Sequence record: OL362276.1
Direction: 5' to 3' (one strand)
Source: Escherichia phage HC13
Length of the DNA: 39,803 bases
The notes beneath the pieces were generated by a model. It ran no database searches. It was not told the origin of the DNA and saw only the letters and a program-made list of their open reading frames with translations. A program made the position numbers and the translations under genes. Of the stretch, positions 2,047 through 39,566 are shown in pieces. Position 1 is the stretch's first letter, and each line of letters begins with the position of its first letter.

Positions 2047-2151
2047 ATGAGCACTGCAATCATCTGGACTATCTCAGGCTTCGTAGCGTGGGGAATGTTT
2101 ACTCTAGTCTGCAAACTACCGGTCCTTACTCAACTGTTATGGGGCTTATGA
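2047..2151 (+). CDS. Small hydrophobic peptide (34 aa)
   Basis: My own translation: MSTAIIWTISGFVAWGMFTLVCKLPVLTQLLWGL. AGGAG six nt upstream of ATG. Too short for the ORF track. Single predicted TM helix. Confidence 0.4.
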   Translation: MSTAIIWTISGFVAWGMFTLVCKLPVLTQLLWGL

Positions 2152-2351
2152 CTATGAGTATCGCACTATTGATAGCCATAGGCTATGGACTTATCGCCTA
2201 CGTGCTGGTGAGAGACATCAACAAAGCGCGTAAAGTCTACAAATTCAACTATGTACGTCTGGGTAGCTGGACTGTACGTCAACCTAACGGACGATTCATG
2301 CGTAACTTAGCGAACGTCTGGGATATAGCAACACTTGGGAGCAAACTGTAA
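2148..2351 (+). CDS. Hypothetical small membrane protein (67 aa)
   Basis: In frame with track ORF 1977..2351, but I start it at the ATG overlapping the upstream stop (ATGA). Hydrophobic N-terminus SIALLIAIGYGLIAYVLV. Start uncertain. Confidence 0.4.
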   Translation: MTMSIALLIAIGYGLIAYVLVRDINKARKVYKFNYVRLGSWTVRQPNGRFMRNLANVWDIATLGSKL

Positions 2352-2677
2352 TGAACAAGTCATACGGGATTAATCTGGTACACTCTATGGACGCAGACAT
2401 GCAAATGTTAAGCCTACTGGCTACCGGGTATCGTCACGGGACGTCAAGTCACTCCGCACGTCAACAGCAGGAGCGGGACCGGGTACTGCAAGCAAGACTC
2501 CGGGCTGAGGGCCATAAGTCCGAACTAATGTGTCTGGCGTATGGTGGACGACCAATCACTGACGATGGTAAACTTTTAGTCTCAGGCTGGAAGGCGATAG
2601 ACCAGCGGTCAACCATCAAGCACACGACTCATGGTGACTTCAGTCATCTCCACGCTAACCCGCTGATATGCAAGTAA
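2351..2677 (+). CDS. Hypothetical early protein (108 aa), occupies the slot of T7 gene 0.7
   Basis: ATG overlaps the previous stop. No kinase motifs. Last ORF before the RNAP gene. Confidence 0.5.
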   Translation: MNKSYGINLVHSMDADMQMLSLLATGYRHGTSSHSARQQQERDRVLQARLRAEGHKSELMCLAYGGRPITDDGKLLVSGWKAIDQRSTIKHTTHGDFSHLHANPLICK

Positions 2678-2682
2678 TTCTG

Positions 2683-2706
2683 ACTTAACTATCACTATAG
2701 GACTCA
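2683..2706 (+). promoter_or_regulatory. Phage RNAP promoter (TTAACTATCACTATAGG, +1 about 2700) upstream of gene 1
   Basis: Matches the 11-copy promoter family in this window. Architecture is that of T7 promoters (..CACTATAG G..). Confidence 0.7.
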
Positions 2707-2774
2707 AGGTCTAAGACTCCAAGTGAAAGACCAAAGAGACTTTAAGTGAAAGACTAATAACAAGGACTTTAAGT

Positions 2775-5456
2775 ATGAGCGTCATCTCTATTGACAAGCA
2801 CGACTTCTCTGATGTGTCGAACGCCATTGAGCCGTTTAACCTACTGGCTGACCACTACGGGCAAGACCTTGCAGTCAAACAGCTTCAGCTTGAGCACGAG
2901 GCATACACTGAAGGCGAGCGACGTTTCATCAAGAACCTTGAGAGACAGACTGAGCGAGGGGAACTGGCAGACAATCAGGTCGCCAAGCCTTTGATGCAGA
3001 CTCTGGTCCCTAAGATTGCGCAAGCCGTCAAGGAGTGGCATGAAGGTCCAGACGGGAAGCTGTCAACCTCTCGTCCTAGCGTAGCGTTCACCGTGTTGAG
3101 CACTGAAGAGAAGGCCGTCAAGGACCGCTCTATGCGCATCTCCTGTGAGTCCGCTGCGGTTATCATACTGAAGGTCATACTCTCCAAGCTGGTCAAGCCT
3201 GAAGGGATACCGATTACACCGATGGCCTCCGCGATAGGTCGCACACTTGAGGACGAAATCCGCTTCGGTCGCATCCGTGACAAAGAGAAAGAGCACTTCA
3301 AGAAGGCGATAGCTGATAACCTGAATAAGCGGGCCGGGGCGTCATACAAGAAAGCCTACATGCAAGCGGTCGAGGCGTCCATGCTGGAGCAAGGCCAACT
3401 GGAAGATGCGTGGGGGACTTGGAGTCCTACAGAGGCTGTCCACGTTGGCATCAAGATGCTCGAGATTGTCATCCAGTCAACACAACTGGTCGAGCTTAAG
3501 CGGTATGGTGCTGGTAATGCAGCGGCTGACGTAGAGATGGTCCACCTGTCAGACTTCTGGGTCAAGAAGATGGCACAACGAGGATTCAGCCTTGCGGGTA
3601 TAGCTCCAGTCTACCAGCCTTGCGTCGTTCCACCTAAGCCGTGGACTGGTGTCGTAGGCGGTGGGTACTGGGCCAAAGGACGCAGACCATTACCACTGAT
3701 TCGCTTAGGGTCTAAGTCTGCGGTAGCACGCTACGAAGACGTGTATATGCCTGAAGTCTATGACGCTGTGAACATCATTCAGAATACACCTTGGAAAGTG
3801 AACAAGAAGGTTCTGGAAGTGGTGAACATGGTCGAGAAGCTGAACAACACGCCTATTGATGACATCCCTCAGATGGAACCGCTGAAGCCTGAGGACTATG
3901 CGGGTGAGACTGAAGAAGAACTCAAGGCATGGAAGAAGGCTGCTGCTGGTATCTATCGCCGCGAGAAGGCCAGACAGTCACGAAGATTGTCACTGAGCTT
4001 TATCGTCAACCAAGCGAACAAGTTCTCTCAGTTCAAGGCCATCTGGTTCCCGTATAACATGGACTGGCGCGGTCGCGTCTACGCTGTGCCGATGTTCAAC
4101 CCTCAGGGTAACGACATGCAAAAGGGTCTTCTGACTCTGGCAGTCGGTAAGCCTATTGGTGCTGATGGTTTCAAATGGCTGAAGGTCCACGGTGCAAACT
4201 GCGCGGGTGTCGATAAAGTCACCTTCGAGGAGCGTATCAAGTGGGTGGAAGATAACCACGACAACATCATGGCTGCTGCCAATGCACCGATGGATAGCAT
4301 TGAGTGGTGGGGCAAGTTAGACTCTCCGTTCTGCTTCCTAGCGTTCTGCTTCGAGTATGCTGGCGTAATGCACCACGGCTTGTCTTACTCCTGCTCGCTG
4401 CCGATAGCGTTCGATGGGTCCTGCTCTGGGATTCAGCACTTCAGCGCTATGCTTCGCGACCACATCGGTGGACATGCAGTAAACCTGACGCCATCCGGTA
4501 AGGTCCAAGACATCTACCGCATCGTGTCTGACCGCATTGAGGAGGAGCTTAAAGTCCTACTGGTTAACGGTACGGACAACGAGATGGTAACTCACGAGGA
4601 CAAGAAAACTGGTGAGATTACCGAGCGTCTCAAGCTGGGGACACGAGAGCTTGCCCGTCAGTGGCTGACCTACGGTATGTCACGAAAGGTCACTAAGCGT
4701 TCGGTCATGACTCTGGCCTACGGGTCGAAAGAGTACGGCTTCGCAGACCAAGTTTACGAGGACATCGTGATGCCAGCGATTGACTCAGGGTCTGGCGCTA
4801 TGTTCACTGAACCAAGCCAAGCATCTCGCTTCATGGCTAAGATGATTTGGGAAGCTGTGAGTGTGACCGTAGTTGCTGCGGTTGACGCGATGAAATGGCT
4901 TCAGGGTGCTGCCAAGCTGCTTGCTGCTGAAGTGAAGGACAAGAAGACTGGAGAAATCCTGAAGCCTTGTCTTCCGGTACACTGGGTCACACCTGATGGT
5001 TTCCCTGTCTGGCAGGAATACCGCAAGAAGGACACCACTCGTCTGAACCTGATGTTCTTAGGGTCATTCAACCTTCAGCCTACCGTCAACAAAGGCACGA
5101 AGAAAGAGCTGGACAAGCACAAGCAGGAGTCAGGCATTAGCCCGAACTTCGTCCACTCACAAGATGGTAGCCACCTGCGGAAGACTGTAGTCCACACTCA
5201 CCGCAAGTATGGCGTGATGTCATTCGCAGTGATTCACGATAGCTTCGGGACCATCCCTGCTGACGCTGAGTATCTGTTCCGTGGTGTCCGTGAGACGATG
5301 GTCGAGACATACCGCGATAACGATGTGCTGCTTGACTTCTACGAGCAGTTTGAATACCAGCTTCATGAAAGCCAGCGCGACAAGTTGCCTGAGCTTCCGA
5401 AGAAAGGTAAACTGAATATCGAAGACATCTTGTCTTCAGACTTTGCATTCGCTTAA
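2775..5456 (+). CDS. 1: Single-subunit DNA-directed RNA polymerase (T7 gene 1 homologue)
   Basis: 893 aa, aligns end to end with T7 RNAP as recalled (ANQFKAIWFPYNMDWRGRVYA, HGANCAGVDK, DGSCSGIQHFSAM, KRSVMTLAYGS, NFVHSQDGSHLR, IHDSFGT, C-terminal SDFAFA). Confidence 0.97.
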   Translation: MSVISIDKHDFSDVSNAIEPFNLLADHYGQDLAVKQLQLEHEAYTEGERRFIKNLERQTERGELADNQVAKPLMQTLVPKIAQAVKEWHEGPDGKLSTSRPSVAFTVLSTEEKAVKDRSMRISCESAAVIILKVILSKLVKPEGIPITPMASAIGRTLEDEIRFGRIRDKEKEHFKKAIADNLNKRAGASYKKAYMQAVEASMLEQGQLEDAWGTWSPTEAVHVGIKMLEIVIQSTQLVELKRYGAGNAAADVEMVHLSDFWVKKMAQRGFSLAGIAPVYQPCVVPPKPWTGVVGGGYWAKGRRPLPLIRLGSKSAVARYEDVYMPEVYDAVNIIQNTPWKVNKKVLEVVNMVEKLNNTPIDDIPQMEPLKPEDYAGETEEELKAWKKAAAGIYRREKARQSRRLSLSFIVNQANKFSQFKAIWFPYNMDWRGRVYAVPMFNPQGNDMQKGLLTLAVGKPIGADGFKWLKVHGANCAGVDKVTFEERIKWVEDNHDNIMAAANAPMDSIEWWGKLDSPFCFLAFCFEYAGVMHHGLSYSCSLPIAFDGSCSGIQHFSAMLRDHIGGHAVNLTPSGKVQDIYRIVSDRIEEELKVLLVNGTDNEMVTHEDKKTGEITERLKLGTRELARQWLTYGMSRKVTKRSVMTLAYGSKEYGFADQVYEDIVMPAIDSGSGAMFTEPSQASRFMAKMIWEAVSVTVVAAVDAMKWLQGAAKLLAAEVKDKKTGEILKPCLPVHWVTPDGFPVWQEYRKKDTTRLNLMFLGSFNLQPTVNKGTKKELDKHKQESGISPNFVHSQDGSHLRKTVVHTHRKYGVMSFAVIHDSFGTIPADAEYLFRGVRETMVETYRDNDVLLDFYEQFEYQLHESQRDKLPELPKKGKLNIEDILSSDFAFA

Positions 5457-5471
5457 CAGGAGGAGAAGTAT

Positions 5472-5702
5472 ATGTCAATGAAACTTGTAGCACACAACAG
5501 AGTATTCAACGATGGGTCGGGACGTTGCCATGTAGAGCTGACTTATAAGGATTTAATCATTCTCCGAGACAGATTACAGTCGGGTGTGACTGGGTGGATT
5601 CAACCTAACGAGTACAACCTTATAGCTTCGATTGATGAAGTTCTTAACGCGTGGATGGAAGACGAGCGAATTCAGTATCCGTCATTCCCTCTAATTAGAT
5701 AA
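5472..5702 (+). CDS. Hypothetical protein (76 aa)
   Basis: Strong SD AGGAGGAG upstream. Sits between gene 1 and 1.1; no recognisable motif. Confidence 0.5.
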   Translation: MSMKLVAHNRVFNDGSGRCHVELTYKDLIILRDRLQSGVTGWIQPNEYNLIASIDEVLNAWMEDERIQYPSFPLIR

Positions 5703-5712
5703 GGAGAGAGTT

Positions 5713-5928
5713 ATGAAATTTGCACACAAGCATACTGGCGTTAATGGTGGGACTCAAATCGTGACCGTAACAGAACACAACGGCAAGGGTATGGTGAAGA
5801 CCACGGTCATACCTACCGAGATGTCCAAGCAGCTTAACATCCCGTTCAAGACTCTTGTATATCTGGTCGAGTCCAGCCACGAGAAGTACCTGAAGGACGC
5901 AGTGTCCAAGCTGGAGCAGGCCAAATGA
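5713..5928 (+). CDS. Hypothetical protein (71 aa)
   Basis: SD AAGGAGAG upstream of ATG. No recognisable motif. Confidence 0.5.
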   Translation: MKFAHKHTGVNGGTQIVTVTEHNGKGMVKTTVIPTEMSKQLNIPFKTLVYLVESSHEKYLKDAVSKLEQAK

Positions 5929-6002
5929 CAGACATACAGTTACTGGCCCTGTGGCTGGGAGCACTCGCAGTATTCACTTTAATCCAACGCAGAAGAGGTT
6001 AA
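5925..6002 (+). CDS. Small hydrophobic peptide (25 aa)
   Basis: My own translation: MTDIQLLALWLGALAVFTLIQRRRG. ATG overlaps the upstream stop (ATGA). Very short, speculative. Confidence 0.25.
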   Translation: MTDIQLLALWLGALAVFTLIQRRRG

Positions 6003-6003
6003 C

Positions 6004-6027
6004 CCTAAACTATCACTATAGGATTAG
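6004..6027 (+). promoter_or_regulatory. Phage RNAP promoter (TAAACTATCACTATAGG, +1 about 6021)
   Basis: Promoter-family match. Position equals T7 phi1.1. Confidence 0.75.
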
Positions 6028-6070
6028 ACTCAAGGTCATGACTCAAAGTCGTGGCCTTCATGATTAACCC
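6022..6070 (+). promoter_or_regulatory. Putative RNase III processing hairpin (R1.1-like)
   Basis: Conserved UAGACUCAAGGUCAU ... GUGGCCUUCAUGAUUAA. Upper stem AAGGUCAU pairs with GUGGCCUU; internal loop and lower stem as in the hairpins at 13150 and 36801. Confidence 0.45.
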
Positions 6071-6099
6071 TAAATAAACACTACTGGAGATTTAACCGT

Positions 6100-6279
6100 A
6101 TGTATCAGAACACTATCAACTTCGAGCGCATCCGTGAACGTCAGCAGACTGAAGGTTACATCCCTAAGGGCCGCAAGCTGAACAAGACTAAACGTGGCGG
6201 TGGCATCAAAGGTGCTTTCCGTAATGCTGAAGGTAAAGACTCTCTGGTCAACCAAGAGAAATACTTCGTAGGAGCATAA
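6100..6279 (+). CDS. 1.1: Gene 1.1-like small basic protein (59 aa)
   Basis: My own translation contains KGRKLNKTKR, matching T7 gp1.1 as recalled. Below the ORF-track size cutoff. Confidence 0.6.
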   Translation: MYQNTINFERIRERQQTEGYIPKGRKLNKTKRGGGIKGAFRNAEGKDSLVNQEKYFVGA

Positions 6280-6283
6280 CCAA

Positions 6284-6547
6284 ATGGGCCGACTTTATAG
6301 TGGCAACCTCAACGCTTTCAAATCAGCGTGCAACAGGCTCTATCAGTTAGACTTAGCTGTTATATCTCAGGAGTTTCAAGACCATGTGTCAAGCCAAGAG
6401 TGCATGAAACTCAGGGTGGAGGACCGAGCCGGTAACATCTTCGCGCTTGAGACCTTCGCACACTACGATGAAGACGTGCTGTATAATACCGCAACCGACT
6501 ACCTCAACGGTCTCGCTGACCATCTCGACACATGGAGCAAAGAATAA
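6284..6547 (+). CDS. 1.2: gp1.2, inhibitor of host dGTP triphosphohydrolase
   Basis: MGRLYSGNLNAFKSA...LDLAVI...RVEDRAGN...HYDEDVLYN aligns with T7 gp1.2 (MGRLYSGNLAAFKAA...). Confidence 0.85.
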   Translation: MGRLYSGNLNAFKSACNRLYQLDLAVISQEFQDHVSSQECMKLRVEDRAGNIFALETFAHYDEDVLYNTATDYLNGLADHLDTWSKE

Positions 6548-7593
6548 TGACAACTATCAAAACTAACCCTCACCGCGCTGTAGATTACTCTGAGTCTGGA
6601 ATTAAGAAGGCACTGGAAGCAGCCGGGTCTCTGGAAGCTGAAGTGAAGTACGATGGTGTGCGCCTGAACCTCCTGGTCCTGCGTGAAGGTGAGACCTACT
6701 GGCTTAGCCGCGAGTCGAAACCTCTACCAGCCTTGGAGTGGATGAACTCTGAGTTAGGTAATGCGTGGACCCAAGCTGACTGGCGATGGTTCCTGCGTCA
6801 ATCCGGCTACGAAGGTGTGGGCATGATGATTGATGGCGAGGTCATGGTCAAAGGTGTAGACTTCAACACCTCCTCAGGTCTCATCCGAACGAAGTGGCTC
6901 AAGCCTAACAACGAGGAGTTCGCTGAATACTATTCGCCGGCGACTGGTGGAAAGAAGCTCCCGTTCTGGGGATCCCGGTCACGACTTCAGGTTGTGGTCT
7001 ACGGTGTCATCGACATGACAACCATTGCTGACCCGAAAGCCGAAGGTCCTATCCATAGCGTCACACGCCTGAAGGCCGAAGCTATCGTCCCTCTCCTCCA
7101 GAAATACTTCCCGGAAATCGACTGGGCTCTGTCTGAGTCACACACGGTCTATGACCTTGAGTCGCTCAACTCCCTGTACGAACAGAAGCGTCTGGAAGGA
7201 CACGAGGGTCTGGTAGTCAAGGACCCACTGGGTAAATATAAGCGTGGCAAGAAGTCAGGCATGTGGAAGATGAAGCCTGAGGAGACCATCGACGGGACCG
7301 TGTGTGGTCTCGTGTGGGGGACTCATGGTAAGGCTAACGAGGGCAAGGTCATCGGCTTCGAGGTTCTGCTTGAGGATGGCATGGTGGTTAACGCCTGTGG
7401 TCTGACTGAAGAACAGAAGGCTGAGTTTACGGAAGCCTGTAACACTGATACATATATTCTCGGTGGAATCAATCCATACGAAGGCTGGCAGTGTGAAGTG
7501 CTATTCATGGAGCGGTTCCCTGATGGCTCTCTTCGTCACCCTAGCTTCAAGTGCTGGCGTGGAACGGAAGACAATCCAACCGTTAAGAGCTAA
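6547..7593 (+). CDS. 1.3: ATP-dependent DNA ligase (gene 1.3)
   Basis: Aligns with T7 ligase: catalytic Lys motif EVKYDGVR, EGHEGLVVKDP, KSGMWKMKPE, C-terminal SLRHPSF. I prefer the ATG at 6547 (MTTIKTNP..., matching T7 MMNIKTNP); the track ORF begins at 6532. Confidence 0.93.
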   Translation: MTTIKTNPHRAVDYSESGIKKALEAAGSLEAEVKYDGVRLNLLVLREGETYWLSRESKPLPALEWMNSELGNAWTQADWRWFLRQSGYEGVGMMIDGEVMVKGVDFNTSSGLIRTKWLKPNNEEFAEYYSPATGGKKLPFWGSRSRLQVVVYGVIDMTTIADPKAEGPIHSVTRLKAEAIVPLLQKYFPEIDWALSESHTVYDLESLNSLYEQKRLEGHEGLVVKDPLGKYKRGKKSGMWKMKPEETIDGTVCGLVWGTHGKANEGKVIGFEVLLEDGMVVNACGLTEEQKAEFTEACNTDTYILGGINPYEGWQCEVLFMERFPDGSLRHPSFKCWRGTEDNPTVKS

Positions 7594-7603
7594 CTAAATG
7601 TCA

Positions 7604-7645
7604 ACCCAGTGGTCTTCGCGGACTGCTGGGTTTCTTTGCTTTGTG
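7604..7645 (+). terminator. Early (host RNAP) intrinsic terminator TE
   Basis: ACCCAGUGGUC / GGACUGCUGGGU hairpin (about 11 bp with two G-U pairs) followed by UUUCUUUGCUUUG. Same position as T7 TE, immediately after ligase. Confidence 0.6.
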
Positions 7646-7678
7646 CTAGCAAGCTATCGTCTGGGCCACCAGTTAGAC

Positions 7679-7702
7679 CCTAAGCTATCACTATAGGACA
7701 AC
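7679..7702 (+). promoter_or_regulatory. Phage RNAP promoter (TAAGCTATCACTATAGG, +1 about 7696)
   Basis: Promoter-family match, one mismatch in the upstream part. Confidence 0.7.
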
Positions 7703-7725
7703 CATCAACAACCAAAGGAGACTCT

Positions 7726-7986
7726 ATGTCTAAGAACTTAATGTTCAACCGTTATACCGATACCTTCCACCTGTCTAACAACCCGTTCGCTTGCATTAAG
7801 CGCAACGAGAAGCTGGGATACTTCGGGAAGGCCGTTAAGCTGTCACCTACAGTCTATGCTCTGATTACTCACGGCAAAGCTGAAGAGGCTCGCCAGAAGC
7901 GTGAGACCGACGTACCTGTGGTATACACCAAGTGGCCTCGCGTTCGTCTGTTTATTGAGTTCGTGAAGGAGGTGATCAATGGTTAA
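7726..7986 (+). CDS. Hypothetical protein, positional equivalent of T7 gene 1.6
   Basis: 86 aa, good SD (AAAGGAG). Assignment is by position only. Confidence 0.5.
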   Translation: MSKNLMFNRYTDTFHLSNNPFACIKRNEKLGYFGKAVKLSPTVYALITHGKAEEARQKRETDVPVVYTKWPRVRLFIEFVKEVING

Positions 7987-8422
7987 GGTGGGGGATACAG
8001 TTAACTATGTTGGACCAGTTGGAGCGCACGCGGGACGCTCCTGTGGCAAGGTGATATTGGTCAAGAATGAGCATGTAGCTGTTGTTAAGTGGCCCCGTTT
8101 ATCTGAACCACTCACTCACTCCATTAGTTCCTTAAGTATTACCAAGCAGGCGCAGTCCGAGCCGACAACCATAGGTCAGGAAGATAGCGTCCGTAAGCCA
8201 TCTCACTATCAGGTCTTTGACGGCGTGGAGTCCATTGAGATTATCGCTCGGTCCATGACTGTCAGTGAGTTCCGTGGCTTCTGCATGGGTAACGTCCTTA
8301 AGTATCGACTCCGGGCTGGTAAGAAGTCAGAGCTGGCGACTATGGAGAAGGACCTGAACAAAGCAGCCTTCTATCAGGAGCTGTTCGACCTACATAAAGG
8401 TAAGTGCTATGCTTCCGAGTGA
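7979..8422 (+). CDS. 1.7: gp1.7-like protein (T7 nucleotide kinase homologue, divergent N-terminus)
   Basis: C-terminal 75 aa (KPSHYQVFDGVESIEIIARSMTVSEFRGFCMGNVLKYRLRAGKKSELATMEKDLNKAAFYQELF) aligns with the T7 gp1.7 C-terminus as recalled. The N-terminal half is shorter and unrelated. Confidence 0.7.
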   Translation: MVKVGDTVNYVGPVGAHAGRSCGKVILVKNEHVAVVKWPRLSEPLTHSISSLSITKQAQSEPTTIGQEDSVRKPSHYQVFDGVESIEIIARSMTVSEFRGFCMGNVLKYRLRAGKKSELATMEKDLNKAAFYQELFDLHKGKCYASE

Positions 8423-8504
8423 GTGGTGCGAGCGTAAACTTGAGGAGACAGGTAACGTCGATTACCTTCAGCTCTACAACTTATGGAAGGAGCGTGGTCT
8501 ATGA
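8409..8504 (+). CDS. Small ORF (31 aa), positional gene 1.8
   Basis: My own translation: [31 protein letters not shown]. Overlaps neighbours at both ends. By position only. Confidence 0.3.
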
Positions 8505-10964: not shown

Positions 10965-10988
10965 TAAACTCTAAAGGAGAATAACTCA

Positions 10989-16673: not shown

Positions 16674-17536
16674 GCGAAAAGAAAATAGCTCTGGTTCTTG
16701 ATGGTGACTATCTGGTCTTCTCTTCTATGGCTGCTGCCGAGGACGAGACTGACTGGGGCGATGACATCTGGACCCTTATCTGCGACCATGAGAAGGCTCG
16801 TCGCATCCTTGAGAACACCATCGCTGAAATCGTTAAGAAGCGCAAGGCGTGGAAAGACGCTAAGATTGTGATGTGCTTCACTGACGATTACAACTGGCGT
16901 AAGGACGTCCTGCCTACCTATAAGGCCAACCGTAAAGGTTCTCGCAAGCCTGTAGGTTACAAGAAGTTCGTAGCCGAAGTGATGGCTGACCCACGGTTCA
17001 ACAGCTTCCTGCGTCCTACGCTTGAAGGCGATGATTGTATGGGTATCATCGGGACCAGACCTCAGATTGTAGGCTGTGACCATGCTGTTCTGGTGTCCTG
17101 TGATAAGGACTTCAAGACCATCCCGAACTGTGAGTTCTTCTGGTTAACCACTGGTGAAATCCTGAGTCATACGACTGCTGAGGCAGACTACTGGCACATG
17201 GAGCAGACCATCAAGGGTGACACTACAGATGGCTACGGTGGTATTCCGGGGATGGGTGAGGACACCACTCGTGCATTCCTTGACGAACCGTATTACTTCG
17301 TGCAGGAGAGCCGCGAGCTTAAGACTGGCAAGAACAAAGGCCAGATTAAGACTGAGTGGAAGAAGTATCCGAAGCGTGAAGACATGACGCTGTGGGACTG
17401 CATGGTTACACTGGCTGCTAAGGCTGGCATGACCGAGGAGGAACTTCTGGTCCAAGCTCAGGTCGCTCGTATTTGTCGAGCCTCCGACTATGACCCTAAG
17501 TCCAAGGAGGTCATCCTATGGACACCATCCATGTAA
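16670..17536 (+). CDS. 6: 5'-3' exonuclease (gene 6)
   Basis: Aligns with T7 gp6 (LVLDGDYLVF, CFTDDYNWRK, YKANRK, KKPVGY, CDKDFKTIPNC, TIKGDTTDGY, MTEEEL). I prefer the GTG at 16670 (SD GGAGGA six nt upstream, overlapping the 5.7 stop); the track ORF starts at 16616. Confidence 0.92.
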   Translation: MSEKKIALVLDGDYLVFSSMAAAEDETDWGDDIWTLICDHEKARRILENTIAEIVKKRKAWKDAKIVMCFTDDYNWRKDVLPTYKANRKGSRKPVGYKKFVAEVMADPRFNSFLRPTLEGDDCMGIIGTRPQIVGCDHAVLVSCDKDFKTIPNCEFFWLTTGEILSHTTAEADYWHMEQTIKGDTTDGYGGIPGMGEDTTRAFLDEPYYFVQESRELKTGKNKGQIKTEWKKYPKREDMTLWDCMVTLAAKAGMTEEELLVQAQVARICRASDYDPKSKEVILWTPSM

Positions 17537-17610
17537 TTTACTGGGTCGGACTTCTGGCCCTTTACTGCATGTACAAGTGGTTCGGGTCGAACAACCGTCC
17601 TAAACACTGA
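17518..17610 (+). CDS. Small hydrophobic peptide (30 aa), gene 6.3-like by position
   Basis: My own translation: MDTIHVIYWVGLLALYCMYKWFGSNNRPKH. SD AAGGAGG seven nt upstream. Confidence 0.4.
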   Translation: MDTIHVIYWVGLLALYCMYKWFGSNNRPKH

Positions 17611-17662: not shown

Positions 17663-17686
17663 ACTAAACTATCACTATAGGGACTT
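17663..17686 (+). promoter_or_regulatory. Phage RNAP promoter (TAAACTATCACTATAGGGA, +1 about 17680)
   Basis: Consensus-class match. Position equals T7 phi6.5. Confidence 0.8.
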
Positions 17687-21611: not shown

Positions 21612-22661
21612 ATGGCAAACGTTCCGGGTCAGAAAGTTGGTACAGACCAAGGTAAAGGCAAATCTGGTTCCGACGCTCTGGCGTTGTTCCTGAAGGTCTT
21701 TGCTGGCGAAGTCCTGACAGCATTCACTCGCCGCTCTGTAACTGCTGACAAGCATATTGTCCGTACCATTCAGAACGGTAAGTCTGCTCAGTTCCCGGTC
21801 ATGGGTCGCACCTCTGGTGTGTATCTGGCTCCGGGTGAGCGACTGTCCGATAAGCGTAAAGGTATCAAACATACCGAGAAAGTGATTACCATTGATGGTC
21901 TGCTGACTGCCGATGTGATGATTTTCGACATTGAAGACGCGATGAACCACTATGACGTGGCTGGCGAGTACTCCAACCAGTTGGGCGAAGCTCTGGCTAT
22001 CGCTGCCGATGGTGCGGTACTGGCTGAGATGGCTATTCTGTGTAACCTGCCGGCTGCATCTGATGAAAACATCGCTGGTCTTGGCAAAGCGTCTGTGCTG
22101 GAAGTTGGTACTAAAGCAGACCTGAACACTCCGGCTAAGCTTGGTGAAGCAATCATCGGTCAACTGACCATTGCTCGTGCGAAGCTGACATCCAACTACG
22201 TTCCTGCTGGCGACCGTTACTTCTACACCACACCGGACAACTACTCTGCAATCCTCGCGGCTCTGATGCCGAACGCTGCTAACTATGCTGCGCTGATTGA
22301 CCCAGAGACTGGTAACATCCGTAACGTAATGGGCTTCGTGGTTGTTGAAGTTCCACACTTGACTCAGGGTGGTGCTGGGGAAACTCGTGGTGCCGATGGT
22401 ATCACTATTGCGACTGGTCAGAAGCACGCCTTCCCAGCTACTGCTACTGGTGATGTTAAAGTTGCTCTGGACAACGTTGTAGGCCTGTTCTCTCACCGTT
22501 CTGCTGTAGGTACTGTTAAGCTGCGTGACTTGGCGCTGGAACGTGACCGCGACGTCGATGCTCAGGGCGACCTGATTGTTGGTAAGTACGCTATGGGTCA
22601 CGGTGGTCTGCGCCCAGAAGCAGCAGGCGCACTGGTTTTCACAGCGGCGCCAGCGGGTTAA
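21612..22661 (+). CDS. 10A: Major capsid protein 10A
   Basis: Near-collinear with T7 gp10A (GKSAQFPV, HTEKVITIDGLLTADV, YSAILAALMPNAANYAALIDPE, HRSAVGTVKLRDLALER, AMGHGGLRPEAAGA). Confidence 0.97.
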   Translation: MANVPGQKVGTDQGKGKSGSDALALFLKVFAGEVLTAFTRRSVTADKHIVRTIQNGKSAQFPVMGRTSGVYLAPGERLSDKRKGIKHTEKVITIDGLLTADVMIFDIEDAMNHYDVAGEYSNQLGEALAIAADGAVLAEMAILCNLPAASDENIAGLGKASVLEVGTKADLNTPAKLGEAIIGQLTIARAKLTSNYVPAGDRYFYTTPDNYSAILAALMPNAANYAALIDPETGNIRNVMGFVVVEVPHLTQGGAGETRGADGITIATGQKHAFPATATGDVKVALDNVVGLFSHRSAVGTVKLRDLALERDRDVDAQGDLIVGKYAMGHGGLRPEAAGALVFTAAPAG

Positions 22662-22924
22662 CGACCTTTAAGGCCCTCTCTACAGAGGGTCCTACCTTAG
22701 AGACGTATAGTTCTACGGTGGGAACCAGCCTGAAGGTTGACTTCCCTGAGCTTTCAGATGTGACTGATTGGTCGCTGCTTGAGGTGACTACGCCTGATGG
22801 TGTTAGCTACTCCCGTAGAACCAACAGTCTCTACTTCAAGGCCACCTCTGGCGTGGAAGGTCTGGTGATTGTTGGGTATGACGGTACGCCTGTGCGTTCC
22901 TTCAACGTATCTTTCACAAACTAA
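21612..22924 (+). CDS. 10B: Minor capsid protein 10B, predicted -1 frameshift product
   Basis: Slippery G GTT TTC at 22635-22641 lies seven codons before the 10A stop. I read the -1 frame as open from 22634 through track ORF 22718..22924. Mechanism known from T7. Confidence 0.5.
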
Positions 22925-22927
22925 TTG

Positions 22928-22972
22928 AAACCCCTTGGGTGCCTTCGGGTGCTTGAGGGGTTTTTTTTTTTG
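22928..22972 (+). terminator. T-phi-like terminator after the capsid gene
   Basis: AACCCCTTGGG...CTTGAGGGG stem followed by a run of 11 T. Resembles T7 T-phi (AACCCCTTGGGGCCTCTAAACGGGTCTTGAGGGGTTTTTTG). Confidence 0.75.
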
Positions 22973-22986
22973 CTTAAGGAGGGACT

Positions 22987-23076
22987 ATGGTCCTTATTTA
23001 CACAGGGTTAGCACTATTCGTCTTATTCTGGGCGTACCTGCTGTCCAGCTCACCGTCTAGCGCCTATGACCGTTAA
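22987..23076 (+). CDS. Small hydrophobic peptide (29 aa) between T-phi and gene 11
   Basis: My own translation: MVLIYTGLALFVLFWAYLLSSSPSSAYDR. SD AAGGAGGG upstream. Confidence 0.35.
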   Translation: MVLIYTGLALFVLFWAYLLSSSPSSAYDR

Positions 23077-23087: not shown

Positions 23088-23654
23088 ATGGCTCAATACA
23101 TTCCACTGAATGCTAACGATGACTTAGATGCCATCAACGATATGTTAGCAGCTATCGGTGAACCAGCAGTCCTACAGCTTGACGAAGGTAACGCTGACGT
23201 CTCGAACGCTCAACGTATCCTGCATCGTGTCAATCGTCAGGTCCAAGCTAAAGGCTGGAACTTTAACATCAACGAAGCTGCTGTCCTGACGCCTGATGTC
23301 CAAGACAACAGGATTCGATTCCTGCCGTCTTACCTTCGGGTCATGACTGCTGGTGCTACCAGTTACTACAGCAACATGGGGGGCTATCTCTATGACCTGT
23401 CCACTCAGTCCACGACCTTCACTGGACCAATTACAGTCGAACTGGTGGAGATGAAACCGTTCGCTGAGATGCCTGTAGTATTCCGTGACTACATCGTTAC
23501 CAAGGCTAGCCGTGAGTTCAACGCTAAGTTCTTCGGTAGCCCAGAGTCTGAACTGTACCTTCGTGAGCAGGAAGCAGAACTCTATCAGCAGGTTATGGAA
23601 TACGAGATGGACACTGGTCGCTACAACATGATGTCTGACATTGGGAGGGACTAA
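23088..23654 (+). CDS. 11: Tail tubular protein A (gene 11)
   Basis: Aligns with T7 gp11 (INDMLAAIGEP, RILHRVNRQVQAKGWNFNI, GGYLYD, YIVTKASREFNAKFFG, MEYEMD). Confidence 0.93.
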   Translation: MAQYIPLNANDDLDAINDMLAAIGEPAVLQLDEGNADVSNAQRILHRVNRQVQAKGWNFNINEAAVLTPDVQDNRIRFLPSYLRVMTAGATSYYSNMGGYLYDLSTQSTTFTGPITVELVEMKPFAEMPVVFRDYIVTKASREFNAKFFGSPESELYLREQEAELYQQVMEYEMDTGRYNMMSDIGRD

Positions 23655-33947: not shown

Positions 33948-33966
33948 ACTATCACTATAGGAAACT
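33943..33966 (+). promoter_or_regulatory. Phage RNAP promoter (TAAACTATCACTATAGG, +1 about 33960)
   Basis: Promoter-family match. Position equals T7 phi17. Confidence 0.8.
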
Positions 33967-34011
33967 GGAGGCGCTACCATAGGTCTCCGTTTAAATCACA
34001 AAGGAGGCATA

Positions 34012-36192
34012 ATGTCCACGATTACACAATTCCCTTCAGGAAACACTCAGTACAGGATAGAGTTCGACTACCTAGCCAGAACGTTTGTTGTTGTTACGCT
34101 GGTGAATAGCTCTAACCCTACCCTGAACCGTGTACTGGAAGTTGGTAGAGATTACCGATTCCTTAATCCAACGATGATTGAGATGTTGGCTGACCAATCA
34201 GGTTTCGACATCGTTCGTATTCACCGTCAGACTGGAACTGACTTAGTGGTAGACTTCAGGAATGGCTCAGTGTTGACAGCTAGTGACCTGACCAATTCAG
34301 AGCTTCAGGCTATCCATATTGCAGAAGAAGGTCGAGACCAAACGGTTGACTTAGCGAAGGAATATGCCGATGCTGCTGGTAGCTCTGCGGGCAACGCTAA
34401 GGATAGCGAGGACGAAGCACGCCGAATCGCTGCGAGTATCAAGGCAGCTGGTAAAATTGGCTATATTACCCGTCGCTCCTTCGAGAAAGGCTTCAACGTT
34501 ACAACATGGAACGAGGTCCTGCTATGGGAAGAGGATGGTGATTATTACCGCTGGGATGGTACGCTTCCAAAGAACGTTCCCGCTGGTTCAACTCCTGAAT
34601 CATCTGGTGGTATTGGGCTGAGTGCGTGGGTTAGTGTTGGTGATGCGTCACTTAGAGCAAACCTGTCTGATAGTGATGGCGCTAAATACATAGGCAGTGG
34701 AGAAAGGACATTACTTGAGCACAACAATGATGTTTTGCACTCAAAAGACTTCCCAACACTGCAGGCAGCTATAGATGCATCTTTGCAAAAAAATGATCTA
34801 CTGGTGTCTCCTGGAAATTATACTGAAAAAGTTACTATTGGAAACGCGCAGTTAAAAGGTGTTGGCGGGGCCACGGTACTAAAAACTCCGGCAGACTTTA
34901 CAAACACTGTTCAGGTTAATTTAGCTACACCTCATTGGCAATTCCGCCATAGTGGTGGTTTTGCTATAGATGGTTCCGGGACAACCGGGGTCGTAGGTAT
35001 TAGTTTTGACCCGTCAGACCAATATTCCGGACGTCATAATTTTAGTGATGTATACATCCACAACATCAACAAGGCCATTCAGAAGCCTTCCGGGAACATC
35101 GGCAATACTTGGAGAAATATTGGGATATCTACGTGTGATTGGGGGTATTACGCGATTAGTGGCTCAGAGACGCATTGCGGGGCCGATACCCTCTACAATA
35201 TCCACTTCGATGGCATCTCCACCTATGCAGTCTATCTAGACGGCACTGTCGATAATGGCGGGGTTGGCGCATGGTGGCTTAAAGACTCCATTATTGAGGC
35301 TTCCGGAGGTGGCGGGATATACTTAAAAAGTAAATCGGGCGACTGTCCTACATCTCCATGCGGGGTATCCAATATATGGATGGAAGCGATCGCAACATCA
35401 CCGGCTGTTCAGGTAGACGGCGTGGCGCAAAAACCGCGAGTTCTCAAGTTGGTAGACACAGCGATATTCTTTGCTGAGTATTCTTATCTCAACAACATCG
35501 AGCTATCCAACTCCAACTTAGTAACTTATGGTTGCCGTTTTGACAACGCTGATGGCAATCAGGATATTGTCGTGGATGCACAAAGTACCATTGTAGCCCA
35601 TGACGTGTATTTAAACGGCAGTTCTGGAAAGGACGTTATTGTGGAGTCCGTAGCATCGCAATCTGCAACGATAGCTACCACAAACTTATCTCTGAGGGGC
35701 AACTTAACAAGAGGGAGAGTATTTAATACGCCGACAGGGAATAAATTAATGGCTATCACATTTGACTCAGGTAGCCATAATTTTTCTGGCAGCGGCACCG
35801 TTAACGGTTCGACTGTATCTGACGGACTTCACGCCGCTACATGTACCGAATTTTCATTCCCCGGAGCCGGTTTATATGAAATGGTAGCGACAAGAACAAC
35901 CATTACATCCGGTAGATGGTACGTGTGGGGAGTTAACTCACGCCTACAATCTGGCTCGGCGGATATTAGTATAACGTCAGGTATTACCATGGGTAGTGTT
36001 TACACAAAGCAGGGGGAGTGGATTAGCACTTTCGGTGTAGGAAAGGCATCTACCACTGGCACTGTAGCGCTATACGTTTCCACAGGAGGAGGTTCGGGAG
36101 CTACGGTCAGATTCAGTGACTTTTTCATCGCTGAGTTTACGACGCAAGCTCAGGCTTTAGCTTTCGCCAATTCAAGGATGTCGTTATCATAA
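34012..36192 (+). CDS. 17: Tail fibre/tailspike: T7 gp17-like N-terminal anchor fused to a divergent C-terminal receptor-binding domain
   Basis: N-terminal about 150 aa (YRIEFDYLARTFVVVTL..., RFLNPT, LVVDFRNGSVLTASDL, QAIHIAEEGRD) match the T7 gp17 N-terminus. From about residue 225 the sequence is unrelated to T7, Gly/Ser/Thr/Asn-rich and AT-richer at the nucleotide level. Confidence 0.85.
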   Translation: MSTITQFPSGNTQYRIEFDYLARTFVVVTLVNSSNPTLNRVLEVGRDYRFLNPTMIEMLADQSGFDIVRIHRQTGTDLVVDFRNGSVLTASDLTNSELQAIHIAEEGRDQTVDLAKEYADAAGSSAGNAKDSEDEARRIAASIKAAGKIGYITRRSFEKGFNVTTWNEVLLWEEDGDYYRWDGTLPKNVPAGSTPESSGGIGLSAWVSVGDASLRANLSDSDGAKYIGSGERTLLEHNNDVLHSKDFPTLQAAIDASLQKNDLLVSPGNYTEKVTIGNAQLKGVGGATVLKTPADFTNTVQVNLATPHWQFRHSGGFAIDGSGTTGVVGISFDPSDQYSGRHNFSDVYIHNINKAIQKPSGNIGNTWRNIGISTCDWGYYAISGSETHCGADTLYNIHFDGISTYAVYLDGTVDNGGVGAWWLKDSIIEASGGGGIYLKSKSGDCPTSPCGVSNIWMEAIATSPAVQVDGVAQKPRVLKLVDTAIFFAEYSYLNNIELSNSNLVTYGCRFDNADGNQDIVVDAQSTIVAHDVYLNGSSGKDVIVESVASQSATIATTNLSLRGNLTRGRVFNTPTGNKLMAITFDSGSHNFSGSGTVNGSTVSDGLHAATCTEFSFPGAGLYEMVATRTTITSGRWYVWGVNSRLQSGSADISITSGITMGSVYTKQGEWISTFGVGKASTTGTVALYVSTGGGSGATVRFSDFFIAEFTTQAQALAFANSRMSLS

Positions 36193-36336
36193 AAACAACC
36201 TCAGCCGAATCGGGTTATTTATCATCAGAACGGTATTGAATCATCGAAGGTTGTGGAGGTAGAGGCTAACTACACGTTGACCAACGTATGATAACAACTT
36301 TGGGTCACGGACGACCCGCTTTAAACTGGAGGTTTT

Positions 36337-36531
36337 ATGATTGAGTTAGACTTCAAGAATGAGGTCCTCAAAGCCTCGCCTATCGTCGGGACCGCTGCGG
36401 CTGATGGTGCCAGTCGGTTCTTCTTTGGGCTAACGCTCAACGAATGGTTCTACGTCGCTGCTATCGCGTACACCGTGGTGCAGATTGGCGTCCTAATTTA
36501 CAAGACGATTAAGAGCGGAGGTAAGACATGA
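36337..36531 (+). CDS. 17.5: Class II holin (gene 17.5)
   Basis: Aligns with T7 holin (LDFKNEVLKASPIVGT, FFFGLTLNEWFYVAAIAYTVVQIG). Confidence 0.9.
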   Translation: MIELDFKNEVLKASPIVGTAAADGASRFFFGLTLNEWFYVAAIAYTVVQIGVLIYKTIKSGGKT

Positions 36532-36791
36532 CGCAGATGGACTTAGAGAAGTTCCTGTTAATGCTGGACACAGAACGTGCTAGACTAATGCTTCAAGACC
36601 TGCGGGATGACTCTAAGCGTTCGCCCCAGCTCTACAACGCCATTGAGAAGCTACTGGCTCGTCACAACTTCGTGCTAAGCAAGGTGTCTGTTGACGAGAA
36701 GACGCTCGCTGATATGGAGGCCCTGAACGCAGAGTACGATAAGGTGCTCTCCGCTACGGAAGATAATGACACTGGATATGGAGTGCAGTAA
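36528..36791 (+). CDS. 18: Terminase small subunit (gene 18)
   Basis: Aligns with T7 gp18 as recalled (FLLMLDTERARLMLQDL, RSPQLYNAIEKLL). Confidence 0.8.
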   Translation: MTQMDLEKFLLMLDTERARLMLQDLRDDSKRSPQLYNAIEKLLARHNFVLSKVSVDEKTLADMEALNAEYDKVLSATEDNDTGYGVQ

Positions 36792-36800
36792 ATCTATTAA

Positions 36801-36855
36801 GTGTTAGACTCAAGGTCATTACTGTATGTAGTGGCCTTTATGGTTAACACTAACT
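36801..36855 (+). promoter_or_regulatory. Putative RNase III processing hairpin (R18.5-like)
   Basis: GUGUUAGAC...AAGGUCAU / GUGGCCUU...GGUUAACAC. Same upper stem as 6022 and 13150; lower stem differs but still pairs (covariation). Confidence 0.45.
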
Positions 36856-36901
36856 AGTGGAGGAGACTCTACGTGAAATCTGATAAACCGGGAGGGCAAC
36901 T

Positions 36902-37351
36902 ATGCTCGAATTTTTAAAGAGAGCGGCTCCGTGGTTACTTGCAGCAGTGATGTTTGCTGGTGGCTACCACACCGCTAACAATAAGTGGGAGGCTAAGGTC
37001 AATGCAGAATACACCACGAATCTTAAGGCATCGGAGGATACAAGACTTGCTGTCCAAGCTGAAGTCAACAAAGTGTCCAAACGGTTTCAGGACGAAATGT
37101 CCTCGCTGGAAGGCAGCACTGATAGGATTATTGCTGACCTTCAGTCTGACAATAAGCGGTTGCGCATCCGAGTCAAACCAACGAGTGGAACCACGCAAAG
37201 TGACGGTCGATGCTTCATTGATGGTTACGCCGAACTTGACGAACGAGATGCTAAACGTCTTATCGCCATCGGAGTGAAAGGAGACAAGTGGATTAAGGCC
37301 CTTCAGGACACTGTGAGAGCCTTGCAGCAAGATAAGGAGGTGAAGCATTGA
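36902..37351 (+). CDS. 18.5: Rz-like i-spanin (gene 18.5)
   Basis: Aligns with T7 gp18.5 (MLEFL, N-terminal [45 protein letters not shown]). Confidence 0.88.
37047..37277 (+). CDS. Candidate Rz1-like o-spanin lipoprotein embedded in Rz (+1 frame); start codon uncertain
   Basis: Embedded +1-frame ORF with signal-like [23 protein letters not shown] and lipobox Cys codon at 37161-37163. No in-frame ATG near the signal, so TTG at 37047 is only a guess. The mature part is not proline-rich. Confidence 0.4.
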   Translation: MLSKLKSTKCPNGFRTKCPRWKAALIGLLLTFSLTISGCASESNQRVEPRKVTVDASLMVTPNLTNEMLNVLSPSE

Positions 37352-39111
37352 GTAAAGACTTAGTGGCGCGTCAGGCGCTAATGACTGCACGTATGAAGGC
37401 AGACTTCGTGTTCTTCATCTTCGTTCTCTGGAAAGCACTAAGCCTTCCGGTTCCAACCCGCTGCCAGATAGATATGTGTAAGAAGCTGGCTGCTGGTGAT
37501 AATCGCCGCTTCATCCTTCAGGCTTTCCGTGGTATTGGCAAGTCATTTCTGACCTGTGGCTTTGTGGTCTGGAAGCTATGGAACAACCCAGACTTGAAGT
37601 TCATGATTGTGTCGGCCTCAAAGGAGCGAGCCGATGCTAACTCCATCTTCATCAAGCGAATCATCGACCTCATGCCTCAGCTTCAGGAACTCAAACCTAA
37701 GCAGGGACAGCGAGATGCGGTTATTAGCTTCGACGTGGGACCTGCCAAGCCAGACCACTCACCTTCGGTTAAGTCCGTTGGTATCACTGGTCAGTTGACT
37801 GGTAGTCGTGCTGACATCCTGATTGCCGATGACGTGGAGGTTCCGAACAACTCAGCGACTCAGGCTGCACGAGACCGTCTATCAGAGCTTGTGAAAGAGT
37901 TCGACGCTATCCTGAAGCCGGGAGGTACGATCATCTATCTGGGTACTCCTCAGAACGAGATGACCCTGTACCGTGAGCTGGAAGGTCGTGGGTACACCAC
38001 TACTATCTGGCCCGCTCGTTATCCACGCGACAGGAAGGACTGGCAGTCTTACGGCGACCGTCTGGCTCCTATGCTTCAGGAAGAGCTGGAAGAGGACCCT
38101 GAGTCCTTCTACTGGCGTCCGACTGATGAAGTACGCTTCGATGATACGGACCTGAAGGAACGTGAGCTGTCCTACGGTAAAGCTGGCTTCGCTCTACAGT
38201 TCATGCTTAACCCGAACCTGAGTGATGCCGAGAAGTACCCTCTGAAGCTCCGTGACCTTATCGTAGCCGACTTGGACCCAGCGTCCAGCCCAATGGTCTA
38301 CCAATGGTTGCCGAACCCTCAGAACAAGCGTGAGGACGTTCCTAACGTTGGACTCATGGGTGACTCGTACCACACGTATCAGACTGTAGGTTCTGCCTTC
38401 AGTTCTTACACCCAGAAGATTCTGGTCATTGACCCTAGTGGTCGTGGTAAGGATGAGACTGGTTATGCGGTACTGTACCAGCTCAACGGCTACATCTTCG
38501 CTATGGAAGTTGGTGGTATGCGTGGTGGGTATGAAGACTCTACGCTGGAAGCACTGGCTAAGATTGGCCGTAAGTGGAAGGTCAACGAATACGTCATTGA
38601 GGGTAACTTCGGTGATGGTATGTACCTTGAGCTATTCAAGCCTGTAGCGGCCCGTATACATCCTGCTGCTGTAACTGAAGTGAAGAGTAAGGGTCAGAAA
38701 GAACTCCGCATCTGTGACGTTCTGGAGCCTATCATGGGGTCTCACCGACTTATCATCAACGCTGCTGCTATCGTCCAAGACTACCAGTCGGCCTCTGATA
38801 AGGATGGTGTTCGTAACCCTATCTACTCTCTCTTCTACCAGATGACACGTATCTCTCGTGAACGTGGAGCCTTGGCACACGATGACCGACTTGATGCGCT
38901 GGCTATCGGTGTACAGTTCTTCGTTGAGTCTATGGCTAAGGATGCCAACAAAGGCGAACGTGAAGTCACTGAGGAGTGGCTGGAGGAACAGATGGAGAAC
39001 CCACGGAAAGGCTTCGAGTCCATCCACACTGAGTTCTGGGACAATGGGGTCCGGGTAACTCACGATACGGACGACGAGCTGGGACTAGGGTCATACGTTA
39101 CGTTCCACTAG
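37348..39111 (+). CDS. 19: Terminase large subunit (gene 19)
   Basis: Collinear with T7 gp19 ([93 protein letters not shown]). TTG start with SD AAGGAGG seven nt upstream, overlapping the Rz stop. Confidence 0.96.
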
Positions 39112-39205
39112 CTGAATGAATAACTATAGGCGAAAACTGAGTTAATAAGCAGTTAGTAACCTATAGTTACTACCAGTCTAACCTACTGTTTTACAAGGAG
39201 TTTGG

Positions 39206-39229
39206 ACTTAACTATCACTATAGGGAAGA
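39206..39229 (+). promoter_or_regulatory. Phage RNAP promoter (TTAACTATCACTATAGGGAAGA, +1 about 39223), phiOR-like
   Basis: Promoter-family match near the right end, where T7 has phiOR. Confidence 0.8.
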
Positions 39230-39407
39230 CCCCCGGTTACTTATAGTATTACTATAGTGAATATACATATGCAGACTTTATGCAAGACCTTAGGAGGCAG
39301 ACTCCGAGTTCTTACCTAAGGCTTGCACCGATGGGAGGAGGTGATATTAATCATAATACCTCCAATACAGATAGTCACAGACCATAGATACAGGAGGTAT
39401 GTAGCAT

Positions 39408-39566
39408 ATGGCAAAGACCAAAGCTGTACTTAAAGCTCTGGCGACCAATCGAGCTACATACAGGTTTCTTGCTGCTGTTCTACTTGCTGCTGGCGCTACT
39501 GCTGGAAGTCAGTGGGTCGGGTGGGTCGAGACTCTCGTATGTTCTCTGGTGTCTGAGTGTCGTTAA
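39408..39566 (+). CDS. Small hydrophobic protein (52 aa), gene 19.5-like by position
   Basis: My own translation: MAKTKAVLKALATNRATYRFLAAVLLAAGATAGSQWVGWVETLVCSLVSECR. SD AGGAGG upstream. Confidence 0.4.
   Translation: MAKTKAVLKALATNRATYRFLAAVLLAAGATAGSQWVGWVETLVCSLVSECR

Follow-up and report, generated by a model that had tools for sequence, protein, structure and literature searches.

Five short open reading frames in the genome of Escherichia phage HC13

We analyzed the sequence of Escherichia phage HC13 (record OL362276.1; the whole stretch of DNA, 39,803 bp, is referred to below as the window) with respect to five very short open reading frames (ORFs) that could encode small hydrophobic peptides. 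The window represents a complete T7-like phage genome, which is assigned to the genus Kayfunavirus (K1F-like). Its identity to Escherichia phages HC12, 6925, and LM33_P1 is 94–96% across most of its length, and the plus strand carries all large genes, in the T7 order. The initial annotation had proposed at least five small genes with ribosome-binding sites, and all five ORFs listed there are indeed present on the plus strand, each with an ATG start codon and an upstream Shine-Dalgarno (SD) sequence. ORF1 (2047–2151) encodes 34 amino acids (aa) and has the SD AGGAG 6 nucleotides (nt) upstream of the ATG; ORF2 (5925–6002) encodes 25 aa, with GGAG at a distance of 8 nt; ORF3 (17518–17610) encodes 30 aa, with AAGGAGG at 7 nt, within the end of gene 6; ORF4 (22987–23076) encodes 29 aa, with TAAGGAG at 5 nt; and ORF5 (39408–39566) encodes 52 aa, with AGGAGGT at 9 nt. 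These ORFs had also been described as missed by the ORF track, which is correct, but only by virtue of a length threshold: the exact peptides of ORF1, ORF3, ORF4, and ORF5, though not that of ORF2, have already been entered, as hypothetical proteins, into public protein collections.

For all five peptides, a single transmembrane (TM) segment had been postulated. The evidence for such a segment is good in the case of ORF1, ORF2, and ORF4 and acceptable for ORF3, but on physical scales it is weak for ORF5. On the Wimley-White octanol scale, the best 19-residue segments of ORF1 to ORF4 reached −9.6, −7.8, −11.1, and −14.7 kcal/mol, respectively, values that resemble those of T7 gp6.3 and of the holin encoded in the window. 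The Kyte-Doolittle means over 19 residues were 1.8–2.2 for ORF1, ORF2, and ORF4 and 1.3 for ORF3. In the case of ORF5, a single-pass topology was reported by TMHMM for the homologue from phage CR44b, and TMHMM predicts the same for T7 gp19.5 (PMC2680503).

A 17.5-type holin ORF is already present in the window (36337–36531), and none of the five ORFs matched a holin family in PHROGs, Pfam, or NCBIfam. The sole holin match was that of T7 gp19.5, which is not among the five, to phrog_4712, and it remained below threshold (E 0.032). No usable family match in the same three collections was obtained for ORF1, ORF2, and ORF4; a lone match of ORF2 at E 0.14 was disregarded.

Candidates of this kind were counted with a filter that accepted ORFs of 20–60 aa whose SD comprised 4 nt or more and whose Kyte-Doolittle mean over 15 residues was 1.6 or higher. 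Outside the larger genes, in 12% of the plus strand, this filter returned only the five ORFs plus one alternative-frame ORF inside ORF5. Six candidates were found on the whole noncoding minus strand, and about a dozen weaker ones are embedded in large genes. The presence of five ORFs corresponds to a Poisson p of ~9e-4 relative to the minus-strand rate and to a binomial p of 0.045, that is, a modest enrichment, relative to the embedded candidates. The positions alone are thus suggestive of real genes rather than chance; whether the ORFs are genes is decided by their conservation.

Conservation of the reading frames and purifying selection

The five ORFs were used as tblastn queries against 50,697 phage records. 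Full-length matches were obtained in 36 records for ORF1, 175 for ORF2, 196 for ORF3, and 44 for ORF4, and for ORF5 there were 222 records in which residues 14–52 aligned; nearly all of these records represent Kayfunavirus-type phages. In addition, about 290 loci were gathered from IMG/VR and GenBank, and every homologue was extracted. ORF1 was represented by 9 same-length versions with identities down to 47%, ORF2 by 22 distinct nucleotide versions, ORF3 by 22 versions, some of which carry in-frame deletions of one codon, and ORF4 by 12 same-length versions, including two alleles that are just 45–52% identical. The SD is retained among the relatives even where its sequence changes.

Substitutions were counted along a minimum spanning tree, and the ratio of nonsynonymous to synonymous changes was calculated for each frame. 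In the claimed frames, this ratio was 0.29 for ORF1 (binomial p=2e-12), 0.14 for ORF2 (p=8e-18), 0.22 for ORF3 (p=2e-6), and 0.38 for ORF4 (p=5e-5). The other two frames of ORF1 to ORF4 had ratios of 0.9–1.7 (1.2–1.7 in the case of ORF1) and contained stop codons, whereas not a single stop codon interrupted the claimed frames in the same-length homologues of these four ORFs. Of the 67 variable columns in ORF1, 31 were third codon positions in the claimed frame, as were 20 of 40 in ORF2, 13 of 26 in ORF3, and 24 of 53 in ORF4. A comparison of ORF5 among close relatives gave a ratio of 0.47 (p=0.014), with one alternative frame close to it at 0.56, and the gp19.5 family to which this ORF is assigned below is recognizable at 30–47% identity in distant T7-like phages. 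Frame conservation and selection in relatives had been set as the test of the initial annotation; the frames turned out to be conserved and under purifying selection, with ratios of 0.14–0.47 compared with 0.56–1.7 for the other frames, almost all of which contain stop codons. The notion that these are genuine small hydrophobic genes, and not chance ORFs, thus holds.

ORF5 and the gp19.5 family

ORF5 matched the NCBIfam equivalog NF040465 (T7_gp19.5) with 70.1 bits at a cut-off of 33 (E 1.3e-19), residues 6–49 being aligned to profile positions 1–44 of 47. Likewise, phrog_2193 was matched by both ORF5 (E 6e-24) and T7 gp19.5 (E 4.5e-25). By these profile matches, ORF5 is a member of the gp19.5 family. 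Its exact sequence is HC13_0052, with the UniRef name Gp19.5, and its homologues are annotated as gp19.5 in phages Dev2 and CR44b. The pattern of a motif scan for 19.5-like peptides behind gene 19 proved too restrictive, and the Kayfunavirus copies escaped detection; therefore, tblastn was used. A sequence search of the PDB with ORF5 yielded no match.

The genomic order also corresponds to that in T7. Gene 19 ends at 39111 and is followed by a promoter (39210–39224) and by ORF5 (39408–39566) as the last gene, and in T7, the promoter phiOR at 39229 and gene 19.5 at 39389–39538 likewise follow gene 19. The promoter at 39210–39224 (+) is one of the 11 matches in the window to the phage promoter AACTATCACTATAGG, for which 0.03 matches would be expected by chance, and this phiOR-like right-end promoter would transcribe ORF5. 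T7 gp19.5, with 49 aa, is similar in length to ORF5 (52 aa), and the two proteins share the motif R.TYRFL and a C-terminal cysteine pair. They differ in that Pfam DUF5465 matches the C-terminal 19 residues of T7 gp19.5, whereas ORF5 falls below that model, and in that the Ala/Gly-rich helix of ORF5 is weaker than the helix of T7 gp19.5.

In most members of the gp19.5 family (39450–39566 in the window; loci L195–L204 of our collection), two cysteines are located 5–7 residues apart near the C-terminus. This pair is kept even at 33–47% identity; the window has CSLVSEC, and T7 has CSILTC. With an N-in topology, these cysteines would be periplasmic.

ORF1 and ORF2 overlap neighboring genes

ORF1 is located in the early region, and its TGA stop codon shares the sequence ATGA with the start codon of the following gene (ATG at 2148). 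The product of this partner gene (2148–2351, +) has 67 aa and a TM segment at its N-terminus, belongs to phrog_2385, and is named "0.6" in K1F; the gene is without a strong SD of its own. The overlap between ORF1 and the downstream gene was ATGA or TGATG in every distinct version found. Throughout the relatives, the 0.6-like gene is preceded by an overlapping small TM peptide (ATGA or TAATG/TGATG) that belongs to either of two unrelated families, the 34-aa ORF1 type and a 29-aa type (MNIGYWVCL...). In K1F, an adjacent 55-aa peptide with two helices is found in place of ORF1. In the relatives inspected at this slot (loci L003–L022), at least three unrelated small hydrophobic peptides occur, and the 34- and 29-aa types are the coupled ones. 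The ORF1 type has a conserved C-terminal motif, KLPV.TQ, and the 34-aa coding sequence is annotated in vB_CtuP_B1, vB_EholP_HHH, PH1061, and 101118UKE1. Gene "0.41" of CR44b, considered as a counterpart, is a longer ORF in another frame and provides no evidence that ORF1 had been annotated there.

A similar arrangement is known from T7, in which the early gene 0.5 (1496–1639) encodes a 47-aa hydrophobic peptide and overlaps gene 0.6 (1636–1797) by 4 nt. The sequences are nevertheless different: T7 0.5, which belongs to phrog_16572, has no similarity to ORF1, which is in no PHROG, and the partners are also unrelated, gp0.6A being soluble whereas the 2148–2351 product has a TM segment. Upstream of ORF1, a gap of 132 nt (1915–2046, +) contains a long hairpin (−30 kcal/mol, z −2.1) that may be processed by RNase III, in the manner of R0.5 of T7.

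In the ORF2 peptide, a hydrophobic core of 17 residues is preceded by MTD and followed by the C-terminal sequence QRRRG. Here, the overlap is with the upstream gene (5713–5928, +), which encodes a 71-aa soluble protein (MKFAHK...) and corresponds to gene 1.05 of CR44b: in 20 of the 21 distinct ORF2 contexts, a gene of 66–71 aa ends in the ATGA that starts ORF2. On the other side, the ORF2 stop codon lies 1–2 nt upstream of a phage promoter (6004–6022). ORF2 is unchanged in relatives in which another gene replaces this promoter, which argues against conservation via the promoter or an origin. The gene is confined to K1F-like phages. It is unannotated in the records of K1F, CR44b, 101118UKE1, Peacock, and Dev2, that is, in all five that were examined, and a variant is annotated in phage GA2A.

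In another frame, ORF2 is overlapped by a 38-aa ORF with a GTG start codon (5951–6067, +) that extends across the promoter sequence at 6008–6022. This ORF is annotated in 101118UKE1, and an ORF in the same stretch is annotated in Peacock, in both cases instead of ORF2. Stop codons interrupt its frame in 5 of the 22 relatives, and the nonsynonymous/synonymous ratio in this frame is 1.7; its annotation is therefore probably a mistake.

ORF3 occupies the position of T7 gene 6.3

ORF3 overlaps the last 19 nt of the exonuclease gene (gene 6), within which the SD of ORF3 is also located. The peptide belongs to phrog_28149 (E 1e-27), and ORF3 is the last gene ahead of the promoter at 17667. A scan of gene 6 loci revealed a short hydrophobic ORF with an SD that overlaps the end of gene 6 in 53 of 77 cases. 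The ORFs in this slot represent several unrelated sequence families, T7-type peptides included. Indeed, T7 gene 6.3 has the same organization: the SD and the start codon are located inside the last codons of gene 6, and it is the last middle gene before the gene 6.5 promoter. It encodes 37 aa, starts with GTG, and overlaps gene 6 by 13 nt. ORF3 and T7 6.3 also share the general design of the slot ORFs (27–41 aa), which is a short acidic N-terminus, a single hydrophobic helix, and a basic tail.

Homology to T7 gp6.3 was considered and rejected. T7 gp6.3 and two other slot peptides match Pfam DUF5516 with 56–68 bits, whereas ORF3 and its variants gave no match to this model at E values up to 1, and a comparison of ORF3 with the DUF5516-type peptides using hhalign resulted in a probability of 7.8% over 10 aligned columns. 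T7 6.3 belongs to phrog_11345 and phrog_5008 and has no detectable sequence relationship to ORF3. Because ORF3 lies in the gene 6.3 slot and the DUF5516 and profile-profile comparisons were negative, we regard it as a positional analogue of T7 gene 6.3 and not as a member of the same family. T7 6.3 has been remarked to be poorly conserved (PMC2680503). Most relatives of ORF3 start with GTG; the ATG in the window results from a synonymous CTG-to-CTA change in a Leu codon of the overlapping gene 6.

ORF4 is inserted between the terminator and gene 11

Directly upstream of the ORF4 SD, the window contains a Tphi-like terminator (22927–22975, +) that consists of a 17-bp hairpin followed by T11 (−25.6 kcal/mol, z −3.2). 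In relatives without ORF4, the T-run of the terminator is followed by gcttaaggagggcctATG, the ATG of which is the start codon of gene 11. In the window, the SD that serves gene 11 in these relatives drives ORF4, and a second SD, which contains the TAA stop codon of ORF4, drives gene 11 (ATG at 23088). The second, divergent ORF4 allele occupies the same position behind another variant of the SD, and there are also relatives in which the site with that SD variant is empty. The two alleles, in spite of an identity of 45–52%, have the same length and the same C-terminal sequence SPYDR. From these comparisons, ORF4 is an accessory gene of about 100 nt that is present or absent precisely from ATG to ATG, and it occurs in 44 of the ~220 Kayfunavirus records. 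It is annotated in PM131, phi1_146013, and 22664UKE3-2, and the exact peptide has been deposited under four accessions. Both alternative frames over ORF4 contained stop codons in all 12 relatives that were compared. Phage Pipis has a "single transmembrane" ORF annotated between the Tphi hairpin and gene 11 (22935–23060, +; locus L282, 470–574), in a frame different from that of ORF4.

Proposed expression and roles of the five peptides

The interpretation in which we have considerable confidence is that the five ORFs are separate, translated small genes, each of which most likely encodes a peptide with one hydrophobic helix in the inner membrane of the host. We infer membrane insertion and a non-essential role as modulators of steps linked to the membrane. 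The five genes are distributed over all three transcription classes. The early class contains ORF1 and ORF2, which precede the early terminator (7603–7632) that follows the ligase gene, and the middle class contains ORF3, ahead of the promoter at 17667. ORF4, via read-through of the Tphi-like terminator, and ORF5, from the right-end promoter, belong to the late class. ORF1 and ORF2 are each the smaller member of a translationally coupled gene pair, and ORF4 is an accessory insert that took over the ribosome-binding site of gene 11.

For ORF5, the most likely role is a modulation of lysis timing, and the same role is proposed with lower confidence for ORF3 and ORF4. The experimental hints all come from T7 19.5 and 6.3 and relate to lysis timing. 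In T7, gp19.5 is regarded as a candidate for a secondary holin or for a factor in lysis timing (PMC2680503; PMC8365609). Substitutions in T7 19.5 arise upon removal of the holin or the endolysin and alter the lysis time, and in an evolved line, the lysis time was shortened by a 6.3 substitution (PMC2680503). These 19.5 changes appeared again when a holin deletion was passaged independently (PMC8365609). T7 19.5 can be deleted, while 6.3 was not recovered among the removable genes in one screen (PMC9825161). For ORF1 and ORF2, we propose a membrane-directed early function together with their coupled partners; host take-over or exclusion as this function is a guess.

The initial annotation had referred to cell-division and envelope-targeting factors as precedents for such membrane peptides. 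This analogy failed, as T7 gp0.4 has no hydrophobic segment. Both gp0.4, which acts against FtsZ, and gp0.6, which acts against MreB, are T7 factors for cell division or the cytoskeleton that are not membrane peptides, so that no functional lead can be derived from them. Small single-pass membrane proteins that are well known include AcrZ, MgtS, KdpF, the type I toxins TisB and Ibs, holins, and antiholins. Such proteins are similar to the peptides described here in size (25–52 aa), in having one hydrophobic helix and a few charged residues at one end, and in often being encoded beside or overlapping a partner gene. ORF1, ORF2, and ORF4 differ from them in that they match no Pfam, NCBIfam, or PHROGs family.

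Several observations weigh against this interpretation. The best segment of ORF5 has a Wimley-White value of −0.9 kcal/mol, no better than that of a soluble control, and close relatives provide a weak signal of selection for this ORF. The nonsynonymous/synonymous ratios in general were derived from few, related sequences using a minimum spanning tree without multiple-hit correction. In one relative, the start codon of ORF1 is replaced by ATT, and in another, the frame is shifted; apparently, either ORF1 is dispensable or these are assembly errors. The effects of T7 19.5 are confounded by a neighboring DNA hairpin (PMC2680503), and the proposed link to lysis is based on T7 proteins, of which 6.3 is not demonstrably homologous to ORF3. 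A literature search on ribosome profiling of T7 small proteins and on small TM proteins of Kayfunavirus returned nothing specific, and neither ribosome-profiling nor proteomic data on the five peptides were found.

The five ORFs are not a newly seen class, given the gp19.5 family for ORF5, the 6.3 slot for ORF3, and the public deposition of all the exact peptides except that of ORF2. Comparable hydrophobic peptides are annotated in T7 as well, namely 0.5, 1.4, 1.5, 6.3, and 19.5. Tiny hydrophobic genes of the T7 group have been known since the T7 genome was sequenced, and in this respect the result is biologically ordinary and adds little. A useful by-product is the description of slot-like, coupled arrangements, together with annotation corrections at ORF2, where two records contain an unsupported ORF in another frame, and at ORF4, where this applies to one record. 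For phage engineering, the conservation and selection of the peptides imply that these regions should not be treated as empty spacer, and ORF1 and ORF4 are tied into the translation of their neighbors.

Alternative explanations

It is also conceivable, although we consider it rather unlikely, that the peptides are interchangeable cassettes at fixed slots of the T7 group, each with a coupled partner, and that these slots are hot spots of host adaptation. Such exchange would be consistent with the unrelated 34-, 29-, or 55-aa peptides in the slot before the 0.6-like gene, with at least four unrelated families in the gene 6.3 slot, and with the coming and going of ORF4 by precise ATG-to-ATG insertion or deletion, in which the gene 11 ribosome-binding site is hijacked. 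If this were true, the peptides might be inhibitors of inner-membrane defense or entry factors, or might serve the exclusion of competing phages, and ORF2 would stand out as a near-universal, mostly unannotated Kayfunavirus gene.

An unlikely explanation is that only the act of translation matters, that is, that the ORFs are coupling or leader ORFs that feed their neighbors while the peptides are inert. ORF1 would then deliver ribosomes to the gene at 2148–2351 and ORF4 to gene 11, whereas ORF2 would end upstream translation before the promoter. This would fit well with the gene after ORF1, which starts within the ORF1 stop codon and has no good SD, with the use of the gene 11 SD by ORF4 and the position of the ORF4 stop codon within the new gene 11 SD, and with the ATGA coupling of ORF2 in 20 of 21 contexts. 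In addition, ORF1 and ORF4 are missing from most relatives and are thus dispensable. However, the synonymous excess of ORF1 to ORF4 is specific to their own frames, whereas a coupling ORF needs no set amino acid sequence, and even alleles of 45–52% identity keep the length, the hydrophobic core, and the motifs KLPV.TQ (ORF1), SPYDR (ORF4), and QRRRG (ORF2). Moreover, relatives without ORF4 translate gene 11 straight from the same SD, so that no leader is required. The explanation is weakened because selection acts on the amino acid sequence.

Even less probable is that the conservation of these frames is due to overlapping DNA or RNA signals, such as an origin or promoter after gene 1, Tphi, RNase III sites, or the end of gene 6. 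In T7, the primary origin is located in the region after gene 1, where ORF2 sits in the window. ORF2 abuts a phage promoter, ORF4 directly follows the Tphi-like terminator, ORF3 shares 19 nt with gene 6, and the 132-nt leader upstream of ORF1 is structured (z −2.1), all of which would be in accord with such signals. Yet the variable columns cluster at third codon positions in the claimed frame only, the same-length homologues are free of stop codons in this frame but not in the others, ORF2 persists where a gene replaces the promoter, and neither the hairpin nor the promoter cores extend into the bodies of the ORFs. Furthermore, an Rfam search of the whole window resulted in no match, and thus the conservation is not explained by any known RNA element. 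The codon-position pattern and the changing contexts weaken this explanation.

That some of the five are chance ORFs in the short intergenic gaps of a packed genome is hardly credible: short ORFs of hydrophobic character behind a weak SD are frequent, with about a dozen inside large genes, and the enrichment over these is modest (p 0.045), but all five frames are intact in tens to hundreds of phage genomes, each ORF is under frame-specific purifying selection, and the minus-strand baseline gave p ~9e-4. The stop codons and frameshifts that chance ORFs should show in relatives were absent, apart from one genome in the case of ORF1.

Additional features of the window

A perfect copy of the phage promoter is located at 2687–2701, just upstream of the gene for the phage RNA polymerase (2775–5456), and a promoter has been predicted at the same place in CR44b. 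From this position, the phage enzyme could also transcribe the polymerase gene and ORF2. Downstream of the major capsid gene (21612–22661), there is a 68-aa ORF (22718–22924, +). In the annotations of CR44b and T7, this region is represented as the frameshift extension (10B), and in phi1_146013, its counterpart is annotated as a separate "major head protein" piece.

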